From Dictyostelium discoideum (lineage: Eukaryota), in contig CM000155.2 in assembly GCA_000004695.1 (NCBI GenBank), forward strand, positions 2,848,001-2,912,000: DNA of 64,000 nucleotides, given 5' to 3'. Position 1 is the stretch's first letter. Every line of letters begins with the position of its first letter. The notes under the pieces are model-generated. The model was not told the DNA's origin. It did no database searches and was given only the letters and a program-made list of their open reading frames with translations. Both the position numbers and the translations under genes were made by a program. Positions 4,833 to 59,243 of the stretch are shown in pieces.

Positions 4833-8482
<3,650 letters not shown>

Positions 8483-8787
8483 TATTACAAATATACATAT
8501 TATTTATTTGTAAAATATAGTTTTATTATTTTTTATTTGTTTCAAGAGGAAAGGGAAAAAAAAAGTGTATGAAAAAAAAAAAAAAAAAAAAAATAAAATT
8601 ACAATTATAATTGTAATTTCATTTTTTTTTTTTTTATTATCATATTTTTTAATTTTACAAATTTTATTTATTTTTTTTATTTTTTTGAATTTTTTGAATT
8701 TTTTTTTTTTGAATTTAGGCAATTGAATAAACATTTTTTTTATTTTTTTTTTTAAATATACACTATTTAAATATATATTAATAACAA

Positions 8788-9231
8788 ATGTCACACTATA
8801 GTGGAAGTAGTGGTGGAAGTGGCGGTGGTGGTGGTGGATATCATAAACCTCACGCAGGAGGTGGTGGCGGTGGTGGTGGAGGAGGATATTATAGCCATCA
8901 ATATAGTAATTATCATGCAGCTAAAATCGTTTATGATGGTAAACGTATGAGAAAAGCTGTAGTTAGAAAAACAGTAGATTTCAATTCTACTTTAATCAAA
9001 TATAATTTAGCAAGAGTTTATCAAAGAGATTATAGAGATTTTGCTGTTGTACAGCCTGATCAATTATATATTAGAGAAGTATGTTTTTCAAAAAAATAAA
9101 AAAAAATAAAAAAAAAAATAAAAAAAAATAATAATAACATTTTATACTTAATAAAAATAAGTAAGTATAAAATGTTATATGATATCATTTTCAAATACAA
9201 ATAGTTAGTAATAAAATCAAATACTAATAGA

Positions 9232-10754: not shown

Positions 10755-11253
10755 CCATTACAACCTCAACAATTTCAACCAAAACCACCTTACCAACAAA
10801 GACCACAGCAATTTAGCCAACAACAACAACAACAACAATTTAATCCAAATCAACAACAACAATTTAATCCAAATCAACAACAATTTAATCCAAATCAACA
10901 ACAGCAACAATTTAATCCTAATCAACAGCAACAATTTAATCCAAATCAATTTAATNNNNNNNNNNNNNNNNNNNNNNNNNNNNNNNNNNNNNNNNNNNNN
11001 NNNNNNNNNNNNNNNNNNNNNNNNNNNNNNNNNNNNNNNNNNNNNNNNNNNNNNNCCTATGAATAATCCTAATATTGTTCCACCACATTTTAATCAACAT
11101 CAACAACAAAATCATAACCAAAATCAACCACCTCATCATATGAATAATCCAAATATCATACCACCACCCCAAAGATTTAATAACTCAAATGTGGTGCCAC
11201 ATTTCAACCAACTATCAAATCAAAATCAACCACCCCAACGACCTCAATATTAA
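8788..11253 (+). CDS. WDR33 / Pfs2-like pre-mRNA 3'-end processing factor: WD40 propeller with long Gln/Pro-rich C-terminal tail; 2 exons, CDS interrupted by an assembly gap
   Basis: Exon 1 is 8788..9078 (Gly-rich N-terminus, then [23 protein letters not shown]...QPDQLYIRE), donor GTATGT at 9079. Exon 2 starts at 9270 after acceptor TTAATTAG ([112 protein letters not shown]...[24 protein letters not shown]). This is nearly colinear with human WDR33 ([24 protein letters not shown]...[47 protein letters not shown]...). A poly-Q/P tail follows, then N-run 10956..11055, then [10 protein letters not shown]...PQRPQY with stop at 11251-11253. The frame across the gap cannot be verified. Confidence 0.85.
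10956..11055. other. Assembly gap (100 N) inside the WDR33-like CDS
   Basis: Run of exactly 100 n within the poly-Gln-coding CAA-rich region; true size and frame are unknown. Confidence 0.95.
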
Positions 11254-13186: not shown

Positions 13187-15916
13187 TTAATCATCAGAAG
13201 ATAATTGTCTTTTTACTAAATTATGATAAATTCCATCAGTATTATTTAATAATTCTTTATGAGTACCCATTTCTTCAATTTTACCTTGATTAATTACAAC
13301 TACAGTATTTGCATTTATTACAGTTGATAAACGATGAGCAATTACAATGACAGTACGATCTTTCATAATTTCATCGATTGCTTGTTTAACTAAATATTCA
13401 CTTTCAGCATCAAGAGCAGAGGTAGCTTCATCTAATAAGAGGATCATTGGATTTTGAATCATAGCACGAGCTATTGCAACACGTTGTTTTTGACCACCAG
13501 ATAAACGAACACCTCTTTCACCAACTATAGTATCATAACCATTTTCAAACTCTTCAATGAATGAATGAGCATTTGCTTTCTCTGCAGCCGAAATAATTTG
13601 ATCCATTGTTGCACTATCATTACCAAAAGTGATATTATCTTTGATTGAACCAGCGAATAATACAGGTTCTTGTGATACATAACCAATGATACCACGATAC
13701 CAAACTGGATCCAACTCTTTGATATCAATACCATCGAATGTGATTGAACCTGAATTTGGATCATAAAATCTTTCAATCATTGCAATTACAGTTGACTTAC
13801 CACCACCAGATGGACCTACCAAAGCTGTGATTGTACCTTTTGATAATTTCAAATTTAAACCCTTTAAAACACTATTATTTGGTCTAGTTGGATAAGAGAA
13901 TTCCACATCTTTCAATTCAATTTCACCCAATGGATTTTGAATTTGTTTACCACCTGAAACATTGATAGCTGGTACTCTATCGAAAATTTCAAATATACGA
14001 TCCGATGAACCGATTGCCTTTAAGAAATCAGTCATTAAACTACTAATGAAAGCCAAACTCATTGCCAATGAAAGTGTATACAAAAGGAATGAAGTTAAAT
14101 CACCAGTTGATAATGTACCATCTAAAACCTGTCTAGCACCAACATAAACGATTAATACAATTGCCAATTGTGCTACTAAAAATACAATACCACTGAATAC
14201 ACCGGTTGCAACAGCCAATGATTTACCAATTAAATAACTACCATTAATATCTTTTGAATAGAGGTCAATGAATTTTTGTTCCTTTGAAAATGAACGTACT
14301 GTTCTTATATTTGAAATTACCTCTTCACCAGTGGTTGATGATTTTGCTAATTCATCTTGAAATTGTTTACCCAATTGTTTAATTTTCTTACCATATACAA
14401 CGGTTGATATTGCAAGTACAGGTACAATACCTAACATTAATAATGTTAATCTCCAATTGGTAATGAATAATAAAATAACGGAACCAATAATTTGAATTGT
14501 ATATCTAAATAACATTGAGATATTAACAGTGACTGAATTTTGAATCACTTGTGAATCACTTGATAATCTACTTAATAGCTCACCAGTTCTACATTGATCG
14601 AAATAACCAATCTCTTGATTAACAATTGATGAGAATAAATTTCTACGAATACGTGCAACAAATTTTTGACCAGCTAAATAGAATAACCAACTTCTAACCA
14701 ATGTTGAAATTGAACCAATTACGAAAATAACGACCAATGCCAATGTACTTGAATTTAAATTATTAAAACTATGAGTGGTTGCAACGACTTGAACAATTGA
14801 ACCGAAAAAGTAAGGCATAGCCAATGATGTCAATGAACTAAATACCAAAGCAACCATTGCTGCTAAAATAATTGGTAACTCTGGTCTTGATAATTGAATT
14901 AGTCTCTTTAGATTTGAATGTTTAACCTCAACTTTTTTATTTAATCTTTTCTCTTCATTTGATTGATTATAAAATTGTTTCTCTTTATCTGATAATCTTT
15001 TATACTTTTTAAAACTTAATTGTAATGTTATTATATGTAATACTAAAAATAATACCATCAATGGTATACCAACTAAAACAATTACAATTATAATTTCTCT
15101 AACTTTTAATGAATCAAATAATGGACTTTCATTTGGTAAATAACTATCACTACCATTATAAATTTCATTAGATGATGATGATGTTGTTATAATATTATTA
15201 TTAATTGATAAAATTTGTGTAATTGTAAAATATGATTTAATAACATTATAAATTAATGCAATAATTGTTATAATATAACTAATAGTATGATAAATAAAAC
15301 TATCAGAGAATATTAATAACAACCAAAATAATGATATAAAATATGATATTAATAATATATCAAATGTTGAAAAATAAAAAAAGTATTTCATATTAAATGT
15401 ACCACCATTTAATGCTTCAATTTCTGATGAATCATATGATGTTGTTGTTGATGTTAATGTTTGTAGTAGTAGTGATGTTGGTGATGGTGTTGGTGTTGGT
15501 GTTGGGGATGGTGTTGAGGTTGGACTCACACTACCACTATCAGTAGTATTACTATTAATTGATGGATAAAAAATAATGCTTCTTGCATTTGTACTGAAAT
15601 ATAATGCATTTATTGATATTAAATAACCAGCTAATATTACTAATGATACAATTTGGATAAATAATTTAATTGAATTCCTTTGTTTACTATCCAATTTAAA
15701 TTTAAAGAAAATTGTATCTTCAATTAATTCCTCTTCATCAATCTCTTCACCATTTATTGATTTCTTATTATTTAAAGAGAATTGTTTATTTGCATTATTA
15801 ATTCCAAATTTTTGGTCACTACGATTTGTAGTTGATATTGATTGTTTTTGTTGTTGTTTATTATATGTTTCTAATAATGATTCATTTTCTTCATCATTAA
15901 AATTCTTCTTTGTCAT
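13187..15916 (-). CDS. ABC transporter, B-family half transporter (N-terminal extension + TMD + NBD)
   Basis: Single 909-aa ORF. The C-terminal NBD has Walker A GPSGGGKST, signature LSGGQKQRVAIARAM, Walker B ILLLDEATSALD and H-loop VIAHRLST. The ABCB exporter TMD lies upstream. The N-terminal extension has extra hydrophobic segments and an SPTSTPSPTPTPTPSPTS linker. Confidence 0.85.
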   Translation of the reverse strand: MTKKNFNDEENESLLETYNKQQQKQSISTTNRSDQKFGINNANKQFSLNNKKSINGEEIDEEELIEDTIFFKFKLDSKQRNSIKLFIQIVSLVILAGYLISINALYFSTNARSIIFYPSINSNTTDSGSVSPTSTPSPTPTPTPSPTSLLLQTLTSTTTSYDSSEIEALNGGTFNMKYFFYFSTFDILLISYFISLFWLLLIFSDSFIYHTISYIITIIALIYNVIKSYFTITQILSINNNIITTSSSSNEIYNGSDSYLPNESPLFDSLKVREIIIVIVLVGIPLMVLFLVLHIITLQLSFKKYKRLSDKEKQFYNQSNEEKRLNKKVEVKHSNLKRLIQLSRPELPIILAAMVALVFSSLTSLAMPYFFGSIVQVVATTHSFNNLNSSTLALVVIFVIGSISTLVRSWLFYLAGQKFVARIRRNLFSSIVNQEIGYFDQCRTGELLSRLSSDSQVIQNSVTVNISMLFRYTIQIIGSVILLFITNWRLTLLMLGIVPVLAISTVVYGKKIKQLGKQFQDELAKSSTTGEEVISNIRTVRSFSKEQKFIDLYSKDINGSYLIGKSLAVATGVFSGIVFLVAQLAIVLIVYVGARQVLDGTLSTGDLTSFLLYTLSLAMSLAFISSLMTDFLKAIGSSDRIFEIFDRVPAINVSGGKQIQNPLGEIELKDVEFSYPTRPNNSVLKGLNLKLSKGTITALVGPSGGGKSTVIAMIERFYDPNSGSITFDGIDIKELDPVWYRGIIGYVSQEPVLFAGSIKDNITFGNDSATMDQIISAAEKANAHSFIEEFENGYDTIVGERGVRLSGGQKQRVAIARAMIQNPMILLLDEATSALDAESEYLVKQAIDEIMKDRTVIVIAHRLSTVINANTVVVINQGKIEEMGTHKELLNNTDGIYHNLVKRQLSSDD

Positions 15917-18934: not shown

Positions 18935-19379
18935 CAAAACAACTTTTATTCTTTTTTTTTTTTTTAAAAAATCAAAGCAACTTTTAATTTTTTTTTTTTT
19001 CTATTATTTATTTAATACAAATACAATTTGTTTAATATTTTTTTTTATATTTTGAAAAAATTTTGGGAAAATGAAGGATTGGGATGTAAATTTTATTCCC
19101 TTCCATTCCTTATGATATTAAGAATATATGGTATGTAACATCCTCTCAATATTTATACTAAATATAAAATTAAAAAATATACTAATTAATTTTATATTTA
19201 GAATATCAGAATTAAATTTAATTTCTTTTTAAATAATATCACAATTAATGATTTTAAAGAAATTAAAAAGAAATTTGAAAATAATTAATTAGTTTATAAA
19301 CGAATTTTAGTTGATATTAAAACTGGCTATTATGATGGGAATCAAGATGAAATTTTATTTAAAAACATGAATATATTTT

Positions 19380-19555
19380 AAAAGAAAATTCACAACTGTT
19401 CTATCAACCACCCATCTGCACCACCAATCACTAATGGCTCACCATCTGCACCACCAACCACAACTGTTCCATCAACTACTCATCTGCACCACCAACCACT
19501 AATGGCTCACCAACTACTCATCTGCACCACCAACCACAATAATAAATTAACTTTG
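19380..19555. repeat. Short tandem repeat (about 30-45 bp units, CATCTGCACCACCAA(C/T)CAC... )
   Basis: Repeated units ccatctgcaccaccaatcactaatggctcaccatctgcaccaccaaccacaactgttccatcaactactcatctgcaccaccaaccactaatggctcaccaactactcatctgcaccaccaaccacaat are seen directly. Confidence 0.7.
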
Positions 19556-19826
19556 TTTTTAATTTTAAAAAAAAATTTAGGGTTAGTGATTTTTTTTTTT
19601 TCACTCAGTTAGTGTATACGTTACGTAGTCATTTTGAGCGTTGGCCGCGTAGTTAAATTAAATAATAAAATTCACTAAGCAGGGAAGGGAAATTTTCCTA
19701 CAACAATTACAATATAACCCACCGAAAGTTGTCAATGTAGGTTACTTTTAAATAATATCTATTTATTTATTTTTATAAAATTTTACTGGGTTTCAGAGGG
19801 TAATGTTTTTTTTATTTATTTTATTT

Positions 19827-19929
<103 letters not shown>

Positions 19930-19972
19930 CAAATTTATTTGTATTAATCAAAATTTAACAAAAAGATTATTA

Positions 19973-20285
19973 TTGTGGGACAGAACACGATTTAGAAATT
20001 TCCGAAAATCAGGTTTAATTTCAAATGAAATTTATAAATTTGAAGAAAATGAAAAAATATTAGCAGACAAAGGTTATGTTGGAGAGAGTTTATTTTTTTT
20101 ATGCCCTGAAAAAGGTGACAGAGAAAGCTTTTTAAAATATCAAAAAGAATTAAGGTATAATTTTACCATATCGTCAAATGATAGAAAACGTTTTTAGCAG
20201 AATTAAATCTTGTAATATATTAGTTAATAGTTTTCGCGGTGATATTGATATATTATCAGAATATATCAAAATTATTTTTTAATAT
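19973..20285 (+). mobile_element. Remnant of a PIF/Harbinger-type DDE transposase (DDE_Tnp_4-like), frameshifted
   Basis: ORF 19973..20197 encodes ...NEKILADKGYVGESLFFLCP...; ILADKGY matches the conserved D-x-G-Y block of the third DDE region of Harbinger/PIF transposases. The downstream segment in another frame (SRIKSCNILVNSFRGDIDILSEYIKII) resembles the C-terminal conserved block. There is no intact ORF. Flanked by a less AT-rich stretch at 19600-19800 and by tandem AT-rich repeats at 20340-20560. Confidence 0.4.
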
Positions 20286-56229: not shown

Positions 56230-56236
56230 TTTGTTT

Positions 56237-56950
56237 TTATATATTATGTATTCTAATTACGGACTCATCAACATACTCTTTTGTCACTAACAGATAAAGT
56301 TTCGTTTGATTATCTTNTGGTGAAAACATCAGCATCAGATTGTAATTGATCAGCTCTTTTATAACCCGTTTTGTTTTTGAGTGATTGAGATGTGATTCCA
56401 CCATTATTGGAAGTTGTGACAGCTTCATGTGTTGATCAAGCATGGGTGGTAGAGAGCTCGATAGCTTTTTCAACTAGGTCATCTGATGATTTTCATTTGG
56501 TTATTTCAATATCCCTGTGCAATTAATTTTTACTTGTCTCCGCCTCTCTAAATTCAACATTTACTTTGTACTTCAAATCATTTTTATCAATAGTAACTTC
56601 GTTAAATAATACACCAAATTCATCACTTTGATTGAATTCAACATCTTTAAATTCCAAAAAAGCGATATCTTCGGGTGGATACTTTTTATTAGATTTATTG
56701 TTTTTACTGTAGATCATTTTTTGGAACGAAAACTTTAAAAAAATAAAAAAATAAAAAAAAAATACTTTTTAATTTTTTTAATTTTTTTTTTTATATTTTT
56801 TTTTTTTATATTTTTTTTTTTTAAATTTTTTTTTTTAATTTTTTTTTATTTTATTTTTTAAAGTTTCGAACAATTATATATAAAAAAAAAAAAAGATATC
56901 CCTTCGGTTAATTATAGTAACAATACAGACAACAAGAATAATTATAAAAT
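56237..56950 (-). repeat. Second, degenerate copy of the 25447-26160 segment (ORF1 intact, ORF2 with several stops, identical 3' tail)
   Basis: 56523..56717 encodes the identical 64-aa ORF1. 56237..56500 is a diverged, stop-containing version of ORF2. 56717..56950 repeats the AT-rich tail ending gatatcccttcggttaattatagtaacaatacagacaacaagaataattataaaat. Confidence 0.7.
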
Positions 56951-57129
56951 AAAAAAAAAAAAAAAAAAATCTTTTTTTATCTTTTTATTTTTATTTCTTA
57001 TTTATTTTTATTTTTTTATTTTTTATTTTTTTTTTAATTATTTTAATCCCGTGAGTTTTTTTTTATTATTATTTTTAATTCTTTTATATTTGAGATGATT
57101 ATTATTAATTAAATGACTTTGAGTTTTTT

Positions 57130-57540: not shown

Positions 57541-59243
57541 TTATAATCCAACTCTTTCTAATCTATCATATTCATTTTGTAATAAACCAATTTCTTTTTT
57601 TATTTCATATTGTCTTTCTTTTGTTGTCACTGGTTTGAAATTAATTATTTCATCAGTATCTGACAACCAATTTTTAGATTTGAATAATTCATATAAATCA
57701 GAATGTGTCATCATTAAACGCAATACACCACCCGAACCATATGGTTCAATTTTAATTCCAAAAGTTTTCAATGTGGTTTTTAATTCAGCTTCTTTAATTG
57801 TATGTTTATTATCTCTGTTCATTTCCTGATGATATTTAAATTCATTTACAAAATCAGTGAATTTAATTTTGTTCAAATCTTTACCTTGTAAAATGTAATT
57901 TTTTTTAATATATTTCATATTTGCCGGTAATTGATCACTTTTCATCCCAATAAATGTTTCAGATTGTGGTATAACATCTTCATTAAATTTAGATTTATCA
58001 CTATTTTTCAATTTCCAATAAAATGATTCAGCTACATTTGGATCGTCCATATATTTACCTAACTTTTCAAAATAATCTTTATTTCCTTTGAATTCAGATG
58101 ATAAATCAAATATAGCAAAACGTCTTTATACTGATGCGCCTATCTTTATATTATCAGAATTACAAGTGAAAATCATATTCATATAATTAGGTACATTTAC
58201 TTTATCATTTTGATTTCTTTTACGAATGGTAATTAATAGTTCAGTAATAATATATTTAATACCCTCACCAACATTATTCCAATCCTTTACAATTGGTTCA
58301 TCAACCACCATTAATAGCTTTTTCTCAATAATATCATTCCATCCACCAAAAAGTCACAATTATTTACTGATGCGGATATATTATAACCTAAAATCTTTGT
58401 AATAAAGAAATTTGTAAAAATACCTTTTCCAATACCACCCATAAATAATCTCCACATTAATGCAGTCCTAAGTTTACGTCCTTGACTACATGCTAACCAA
58501 TTAATTAGATATGAATATTGTTCTTCATTAAGAGAACAAATTGCAACCTTCAAATGGTTCATAATCACATCAACACCCTCCAGTGTCGTGGTGCTGACCC
58601 CGTTTGGTTCGCTATCATAGAACCAACCTGCAAATTCATTAACACATAAACTACAATCATCTCGTTTAAAAATTCTATCTTTATCTGGAACCCAAGTTGG
58701 TGTACAATGATTTGGTTCATACTCCATAAACCATTGGTAAACATCAAAATTTGGATAACCATCAATTTTGATTATTCTTCTTCTAAAATATGTTTTCTCT
58801 GCATCTGAATACGATAAATCTTTTATTTGTTTATCACCTGGCACCCAAAATCTAAATATTGGTGAACCACCTATTTTAATAAAGTATGTTGATATATACT
58901 TTTTTATATTCTCAACTTCGTCAAATGTTTTTGCAGTTACACACATAATATTTAATGTGTTTACATCAAATGCTTGTTTTGACGAACAAAATAAATGTGG
59001 GTATGATTGATTAAATAATGACTTGTTCACTTCTACTGGTTCTTGATTTAGCGGGCAAGTTAACTTGGCTACTAAATCTTCTTGCACTAAATCTTCTTCT
59101 TCTAAATCTTTTTGCTCCACTAAATCGTTTTCCAATTTATCAACAAGCTCTCTCCAACTCTCATCTGAATCTCTTCTATTTTTATCTGTATGTCCAAGTT
59201 CTTTTGCTCTTTCAATAAGTTGTTGTTTATTAGGTTTTACCAT
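57541..59243 (-). pseudogene. D5-type primase-helicase (superfamily 3 helicase) pseudogene: one frameshift and one in-frame stop
   Basis: Piece 1, 58311..59243: ...EEQYSYLINWLACSQGRKLRTALMWRLFMGGIGKGIFTNFFITKILGYNISASVNNCDFL matches the D5_N / Walker A neighbourhood (W..G......f...G.G.NGKS.F..l...lG.Y), with a degenerate P-loop. Piece 2, 58126..58311, in another frame: MVVDEP (Walker B hhhhDE) ...IKYIITELLITIRKRNQNDKVNVPNYMNMIFTCNSDNIKIGASV matches the SF3 K.LTGGD.I..R..y.....F.P.f.l.F.tN..P motif C. A TAA follows in frame, then RRFAIFDLSSEF (the conserved ..RR...i.F block) continuing as piece 3, 57541..58050. The order and spacing of the motifs are canonical for NCLDV/virophage/polinton-like-virus D5 helicases. 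Confidence 0.6.

Follow-up and report, generated by a model that had tools for sequence, protein, structure and literature searches.

A probable PIF/Harbinger-type transposase relic in the genome of Dictyostelium discoideum

PIF/Harbinger elements and the DNA transposons of Dictyostelium

Transposons of the PIF/Harbinger superfamily, such as maize PIF, rice Pong/mPing, and zebrafish Harbinger3_DR, are recognized by short TIRs, a 3-bp TSD that is typically TAA or TTA, and a second ORF of the Myb/SANT-like type. The DNA transposons of D. discoideum listed in a review are Tdd, DDT, and thug only, and their transposases, according to the same review, resemble no known transposases (PMC5633606). 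Tdd-4/5 carry integrase-like transposases (PMC2836005). Our literature search for Dictyostelium or Amoebozoa in combination with Harbinger or DDE_Tnp_4 found no description of such an element. Here we analyze a decayed transposase gene located in a 64-kb window of chromosome 6 of D. discoideum AX4 (the window being the whole stretch that was analyzed). The original prediction for this locus, that its superfamily lies outside the classic Dictyostelium DNA transposons, is consistent with the list in the review (PMC5633606).

The resemblance to PIF/Harbinger elements is best seen in the intact Dictyostelium relatives of the relic, which possess a DDE_Tnp_4 transposase with the G..HD motif, the D-D-E triad, and an N-terminal HTH region. 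Related copies in Dictyostelium also have a second ORF beside the transposase, in the typical two-gene layout, and a sister family coding for a 434-aa transposase has short TIRs and 3-bp A/T flanks. Unlike PIF/Harbinger elements, the 281-aa transposase of the family to which the relic belongs is very small and comes with no TIRs or TSDs that we could find, no Myb/SANT domain can be detected in the accessory ORF, the flanks of the 434-aa sister family are AAT and not the usual TAA/TTA, and the copy in the window is pseudogenized and truncated. HARBI1 and other domesticated Harbinger transposases have the same Pfam domain and catalytic residues, and one of the homologs (P0008) likewise stands alone among ordinary genes; in contrast to HARBI1, the window copy is frameshifted and truncated and belongs to a diverged multicopy family in transposon-rich regions, with no sign of conserved synteny. 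The bacterial IS5 and IS982 families have a distantly related DDE core, which is reflected in secondary DDE_Tnp_1 and weak IS5_3 and IS982 matches, but the relic differs from them in its spliceosomal intron, its eukaryotic relatives, and scores far under the IS family cutoffs. Last, Tdd-4/5, DDT-A/B/S, and thug-S/T share with the relic the host genome and a location in repeat-rich DNA. The relic is set apart from the Tdd, DDT, and thug elements by their descriptions only, and the relic or the noncoding sequence at its left side (module T, see below) may match a DDT or thug element.

Structure and identity of the relic

The transposase sequence predicted at 19973-20285 is indeed there, but the relic is larger and extends from an exon-1 remnant at ~19778 to a 3' flank ending at 20541 (Table 1). 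At the exon-1 remnant, tblastn aligns KFYWVSEGN with KIIWVSEGN in P0004 of D. citrinum, and the exon 1/intron junction, TGGGTTTCAGAGG|GTAATG, is identical in the relic and the D. citrinum copy (DNA alignment). The intron has the same position in the intact gene at L002 and also in the copies at L003, L001, and L004, and its 3' part is almost identical to that of the D. citrinum copy. A longer stretch, window 19829-20541, aligns with L003 8314-9041 at 86% identity (blastn). Exon 2 still contains the second catalytic Asp (in ILADKGY) and the catalytic Glu (in MIENVF), besides the G..HD motif. The unrepaired 74-aa ORF at 19973-20197 contains ..EENEKILADKGYVGES.., and the ORF at 20178-20282, in a different frame, contains MIENVFSRIKSCNILVNSFRGD... 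The ILADKGY block (~20058-20080) and, downstream in a shifted frame, the R..MIENVFSRIK block were found as predicted; the single frame shift that had been implied turned out to be three frame-breaking deletions in exon 2 (1 nt at ~20002, 2 nt at ~20149-20151, and 1 nt at ~20281).

The relic lacks ~150 aa at the N terminus, among them the HTH region and the first catalytic Asp, and a tblastn search found this part of the transposase nowhere in the 64-kb window. The D-D-E triad is therefore incomplete in the relic, the first Asp having gone with the 5' truncation, and complete in the intact relatives. Judging from the 5' truncation and the three frameshifts, the relic is unable to encode an active enzyme, to transpose itself, or to supply transposase. 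Its G+C content (24%) is host-like, and the same locus, relic included, is present in a second D. discoideum assembly (L005, GCA_054883475.1) with 99.6-99.7% identity. An Rfam scan of positions 19000-23450 gave nothing significant, and a tRNA scan found none.

Table 1 Coordinates of the features described in the text (window positions unless a locus is named)
Feature	Position	Strand	Remarks
Module T, left copy, ~200 bp, noncoding, immediately left of the relic	19540..19750	+	Homologous to L004 5005-5200
Transposase exon-1 remnant, last ~7 codons (..WVSE/G)	19778..19799	+	~20 nt; homology to related copies begins here
GT..AG intron, mainly a long poly-T tract	19800..19965	+	DNA alignment with the D. 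citrinum copy
Transposase exon 2 pseudogene	19966..20326	+	DDE_Tnp_4 after frame repair; DNA identity to L003/L002
T-rich 3' flank with TTTGAATTTTTTT-type repeats	20327..20541	+	Common to the D. citrinum copy
ORF78, decayed virus-like capsid gene group, homologous to PPL_12645	20959-21195	-	
ORF331, MCP-like	21291-22286	-	41% identity to Heterostelium album PPL_12645
ORF114, MCP-like	22307-22651	-	Homologous to PPL_12645
ORF134, 3' part of penton-like gene, truncated at 23090	22755-23159	-	Homologous to PPL_12645
Module T, right copy, in inverse orientation to the left copy	23035..23240	-	nhmmer and alignment
Accessory ORF	L004 5114-5554		Divergent from transposase
Accessory ORF with in-frame stop	L001 5770-6183		Divergent from transposase
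Accessory ORF, ~5 kb from transposase	L002 1948-2871		Divergent from transposase
434-aa element copy	L002 12441-14364	-	
434-aa element copy	L004 1924-3727	+	
434-aa element copy	L004 7154-9050	+	

In profile searches, the unrepaired 74-aa ORF stayed under the Pfam cutoff for DDE_Tnp_4 (E=9e-4, 19.3 bits; gathering score, 24.8). After frame repair, the 107-aa translation of window 19966-20326 matched DDE_Tnp_4 (PF13359) with an E value of 8.3e-11 and 42.2 bits over profile positions 49-152 of 158, so that the similarity exceeds the gathering score and goes well beyond the short motif on which the prediction had been based. The repaired translation also has a weaker secondary match to Pfam DDE_Tnp_1. 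The NCBIfam models IS5_3 and IS982 gave only ~18 bits (E ~2e-3; cutoffs of 110-130), and the IS5 score of 17.7 bits against a cutoff of 110, together with the conserved GT..AG intron, places the relic outside the bacterial IS5 family.

An exhaustive HMMER scan of 1.84 billion representative proteins retrieved 34 relatives at E<1e-3. The best matches were P0003 of D. cf. discoideum (86% identity) and P0004 of D. citrinum (91%), as well as P0001 of D. discoideum, which is the gene model of the window itself. The nearest relatives belong to Dictyostelium and Heterostelium, including a Heterostelium album protein annotated as "DDE Tnp4 domain-containing protein," and the farther ones to a chytrid fungus and to metagenomic proteins; a search of 5.8 billion proteins gave four close relatives only, all from Dictyostelium. 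At the DNA level, exon 2 shares 95.3% identity with the D. citrinum copy (L003) and 88.7% with the D. cf. discoideum copy (L002). These protein and DNA identities are independent of the Pfam profile, and chance is excluded as the source of the homology. Across ten aligned homologs, G..HD, D195, Y198, R231, and E235 are invariant, and most of the ten also have the first Asp (D117), within a (V/I)xD(T/S) motif. The profile match after repair, the close homologs, an intact 281-aa relative, and the conserved residues thus bear out the prediction of a decayed PIF/Harbinger transposase.

P0001 (ACTFIT_008992) splices the tandem repeats at the left onto the relic and looks like a chimeric artifact, and P0003 fuses the transposase with a fragment of a gamma-glutamyltranspeptidase. 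With P0001 and P0003, newer assemblies already contain chimeric gene models, labeled "hypothetical proteins," into which such fragments are fused. The tandem repeats, at window 19387-19540 just left of module T, are built from units of 30-38 and 68 bp whose translation would be a Pro/Thr-rich peptide, and repeats similar to them (~75-81%) follow a retroelement pol gene at L004 759-1137.

Relatives, accessory ORF, and element ends

Copies of the 281-aa family are located at unrelated positions in L001 (two copies), L002, L003, and L004. The L002 copy (8003-8991, D. cf. discoideum) is an intact two-exon gene with a 281-aa product, in which exon 1 begins at 8003 and is followed by a poly-T-filled GT..AG intron and exon 2 (8626-8991). 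The 281-aa homolog covers DDE_Tnp_4 completely (positions 1-158 of 158, E=1.8e-23) and has, besides, a weak HTH_Tnp_4 match. L004, also from D. cf. discoideum, contains an intact element with a related 283-aa transposase. Other copies are damaged: the D. citrinum copy (L003) is degenerate too, with the start codon lost and one frameshift, and one of the two L001 copies is split by a retroelement-like insertion. The family consists of multiple diverged copies, including several pseudogenized ones, at nonsyntenic sites among retroelements, and the only sequence common to its loci is the gene itself and ~150-200 bp of 3' flank.

In three loci (L004, L001, and L002), a conserved accessory ORF is found on the upstream side of the transposase, in divergent orientation, with the consensus MPK.S.W.PAED..[IL]KS....RTKTA.TQRIKKIS... 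Its W..ED...RT...R pattern suggests a Myb/SANT protein by eye, yet neither Pfam nor a profile search of PDB sequences gave a Myb/SANT match. The accessory ORF is not present in the 64-kb window. The 88-aa ORF at 20585-20851 (+), here ORF88, had been proposed as the remnant of a Myb-like second ORF, but we can find no support for this: it has no match to any Pfam or PHROG family and resembles neither the accessory ORFs nor any other part of the related loci, and it lies downstream of the transposase in the same direction, while the true accessory ORF is upstream and divergent. Located between the relic and the capsid-like genes, ORF88 corresponds exactly to DDB_G0293424 of D. discoideum AX4, is an orphan and a singleton in a collection of 15 billion proteins, has a coding-like G+C content of 34%, and is identical in the second D. 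discoideum assembly.

A more distant homolog, P0008, comes from another D. discoideum assembly (L007 6001-7048, GCA_054859385.1), where its three-exon DDE_Tnp_4 gene appears to be intact, with all three catalytic residues visible in the genomic translation. Its neighbors are large ordinary genes, and neither the accessory ORF nor module T is found beside it. P0008 is a possible domesticated Harbinger-derived gene of D. discoideum, and, given an intact gene in such a setting, part of the gene family may be domesticated and not mobile.

Inverted-repeat searches found no TIRs or 3-bp TSDs flanking 19.6-20.9 kb, where they had been expected, and no TIR pair or TSD of the 281-aa family emerged at the window relic or at the L001-L004 copies, only poly-A/poly-T noise. 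A TIR candidate picked by hand in L002 was not reproduced, and GGGTYAGTGA was discarded as a terminal motif, with no inverted partner anywhere. As no TIR pair or TSD can be defined for the 281-aa family, we regard it as putatively mobile.

The 434-aa DDE_Tnp_4 family of D. cf. discoideum gives a clearer picture. Its three copies (Table 1) are 96-99% identical over 1.8 kb and have sharp ends, with an 18- to 20-bp TIR, GGACCTTTCTGTGAATAA, and AAT on both flanks in two of the three. Near-identical copies with these TIRs and AAT flanks show that transposons of the PIF/Harbinger superfamily were recently active in the lineage. The 434-aa element has a single intronless ORF and no second ORF, and appears to be young; an extra partial copy starts 30 bp past one of the full copies.

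Near the relic, the only inverted arrangement that we saw is a pair of diverged module T copies 3.3 kb apart, which bracket the relic, ORF88, the MCP-like genes, and the penton-like gene. A third copy, at L004 5005-5200, adjoins the accessory-ORF side of the intact 283-aa element, and the module is present at one of four related elements. Against dinucleotide shuffles, the Smith-Waterman score of the left copy with the L004 copy corresponds to a z of 15.9; the right copy reaches 9.3 with the L004 copy and 4.8 with the left copy, a weak direct likeness of the pair. All three copies carry repeated AGTGAA/TTCACT motifs, and a truncated gene directly adjoins each of them. In L004 this is the accessory ORF, at the left window copy the transposase (19778), and at the right window copy the penton-like gene, whose homology begins exactly at 23090. 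It is possible, and the most economical reading, that the left copy is the surviving left end of the element from which the relic derives, while it is uncertain whether the right copy belongs to that element. Because a truncated gene is abutted in all three occurrences, module T could also be part of a different element; a transposon end, a separate small element, or a recombination scar are all possible alternatives.

Origin of the relic and its virus-like neighbors

The relic is very probably a dead piece of a PIF/Harbinger-type (DDE_Tnp_4, IS5 related) cut-and-paste DNA transposon, whose ancestor would have been a mobile two-gene Harbinger-like element. When intact, this element would code for a transposase of ~281 aa, with an N-terminal helix-turn-helix and an RNase-H-like core carrying the D-D-E triad, and, as in several relatives, for a second, accessory ORF upstream, transcribed divergently. 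If it acted like those of characterized Harbinger elements, the transposase would bind to the ends of the element, cut the DNA out, and reinsert it at short A/T-rich targets. The upstream part of the relic was probably lost by an internal deletion, which would have taken away the accessory ORF along with the HTH region and the first catalytic Asp and left the last ~20 nt of exon 1, and the three frame-breaking deletions in exon 2 would have come later.

The genes to the right of ORF88 appear to be of viral type. ORF114 and ORF331 represent one protein of ~450 aa, split by a 1-nt deletion in an A-run. An AlphaFold model of the fused protein has low confidence (pLDDT 40), and Foldseek searches of viral structures (BFVD) with this model returned almost only double-jelly-roll major capsid proteins (E values of 1e-10 to 1e-5), from asfarviruses, giant viruses, virophages, adintoviruses, and tectivirus-like phages. 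Because of the pLDDT of 40, we take this result as supportive only of a putative decayed double-jelly-roll capsid-like protein.

This neighborhood bears on the question of what the relic was part of. Between the inverted module T copies lie exactly the relic, ORF88, and the MCP-like and penton-like genes, and the fold-search matches of the MCP-like protein are nearly all double-jelly-roll capsid proteins, as would be expected if all these genes had formed a composite virus-like element between T ends, with the transposase as its integration module. It is improbable, however, that they did, and equally improbable that a Polinton-like or virus-like capsid module travelled with, or was mobilized by, a Harbinger-type DDE transposase; the usual integrase of Polinton-like elements is of the retroviral type. 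No capsid genes lie close to the near-identical transposase copies of D. citrinum and D. cf. discoideum, the capsid/helicase locus of Heterostelium has no DDE_Tnp_4 gene, and the helicase of the virus-like cluster is outside the bracket. In addition, the direct likeness between the two T copies is weak (z=4.8), and both genes that touch them are truncated, suggesting breakage rather than design. As the transposase and the virus-like genes do not occur together in other genomes, we treat the juxtaposition as a putative graveyard of mobile elements and not as one element. Somewhat less far-fetched, although still unlikely, is an origin as a pseudogene copy of a domesticated, HARBI1-like host gene instead of mobile-element remains, for which the lack of detectable TIRs or TSDs in the 281-aa family and the intact three-exon P0008 between large ordinary genes in a D. 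discoideum strain would speak. P0008 is, however, only ~44% identical to the relic, whose close relatives are nonsyntenic, often broken, located in retroelement and transposon clusters, and paired with a conserved divergent accessory ORF, as in transposon families. The relic itself has neither the intact frame, nor the single copy, nor the conserved position of a domesticated gene.

That the sequence is a chance ORF in AT-rich DNA, a contaminant of the bacterial IS5 type, or a recent horizontal transfer is extremely unlikely, despite the unrepaired ORF being under the Pfam cutoff when taken alone and the weak NCBIfam matches to IS5 and IS982 (E ~2e-3). These possibilities are refuted by a DNA identity of 89-95% to copies in two other Dictyostelium species, the spliceosomal GT..AG intron at a conserved position, the host-like G+C content of 24%, and NCBIfam scores of ~18 bits against cutoffs of 110-130; moreover, the relic is also present in the second D. 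discoideum assembly. Returning to the PIF/Harbinger transposon, we consider the relic a genuine, ordinary fossil, and its superfamily does not appear in the standard list of Dictyostelium DNA transposons. Together with intact relatives from D. cf. discoideum, D. citrinum, a further D. discoideum strain, and Heterostelium, the relic shows that this widespread superfamily colonized the dictyostelids as well, leaving a fossil in the AX4 reference genome. The finding changes no concept; it can help to annotate repeats and to date the loss of transposons in the lineage of D. discoideum.

Regarding the rest of the window, it is AT rich (~22% G+C) and encodes poly-N/poly-Q proteins and ABC transporters. 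A gene for a DUF5906 protein (D5-like superfamily-3 helicase) is located at 57541-59243 (-), with counterparts at L005 18876-20918 and L006 13080-14753. In AX4 this gene is split into DDB_G0293454 and DDB_G0293464, whereas another D. discoideum assembly has it modeled as one protein of 615 aa. The helicase gene is within a few kilobases of the capsid-like genes in L005 and in Heterostelium, which suggests a putative capsid-plus-helicase virus-like element conserved in dictyostelids. For P. pallidum and D. fasciculatum, the literature reports Polintons and related elements (PMC3671162). In L005, the capsid-like and helicase genes are just ~4 kb apart, and a 30-kb block of ordinary genes (ABC transporters and others) at window 26162-56230 is absent. 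The block is flanked by a direct repeat of ~738 bp (~25425-26162 and 56230-56967), which is similar to the transposon-associated sequence at L001 6641-7341. The difference could be due to a deletion in the strain by recombination between the repeats, or to an insertion or misassembly in AX4. Two N runs mark assembly gaps in the window (~23438-23542 and ~10950-11050), the first of which is bridged in L005 by positions 15427-15685.
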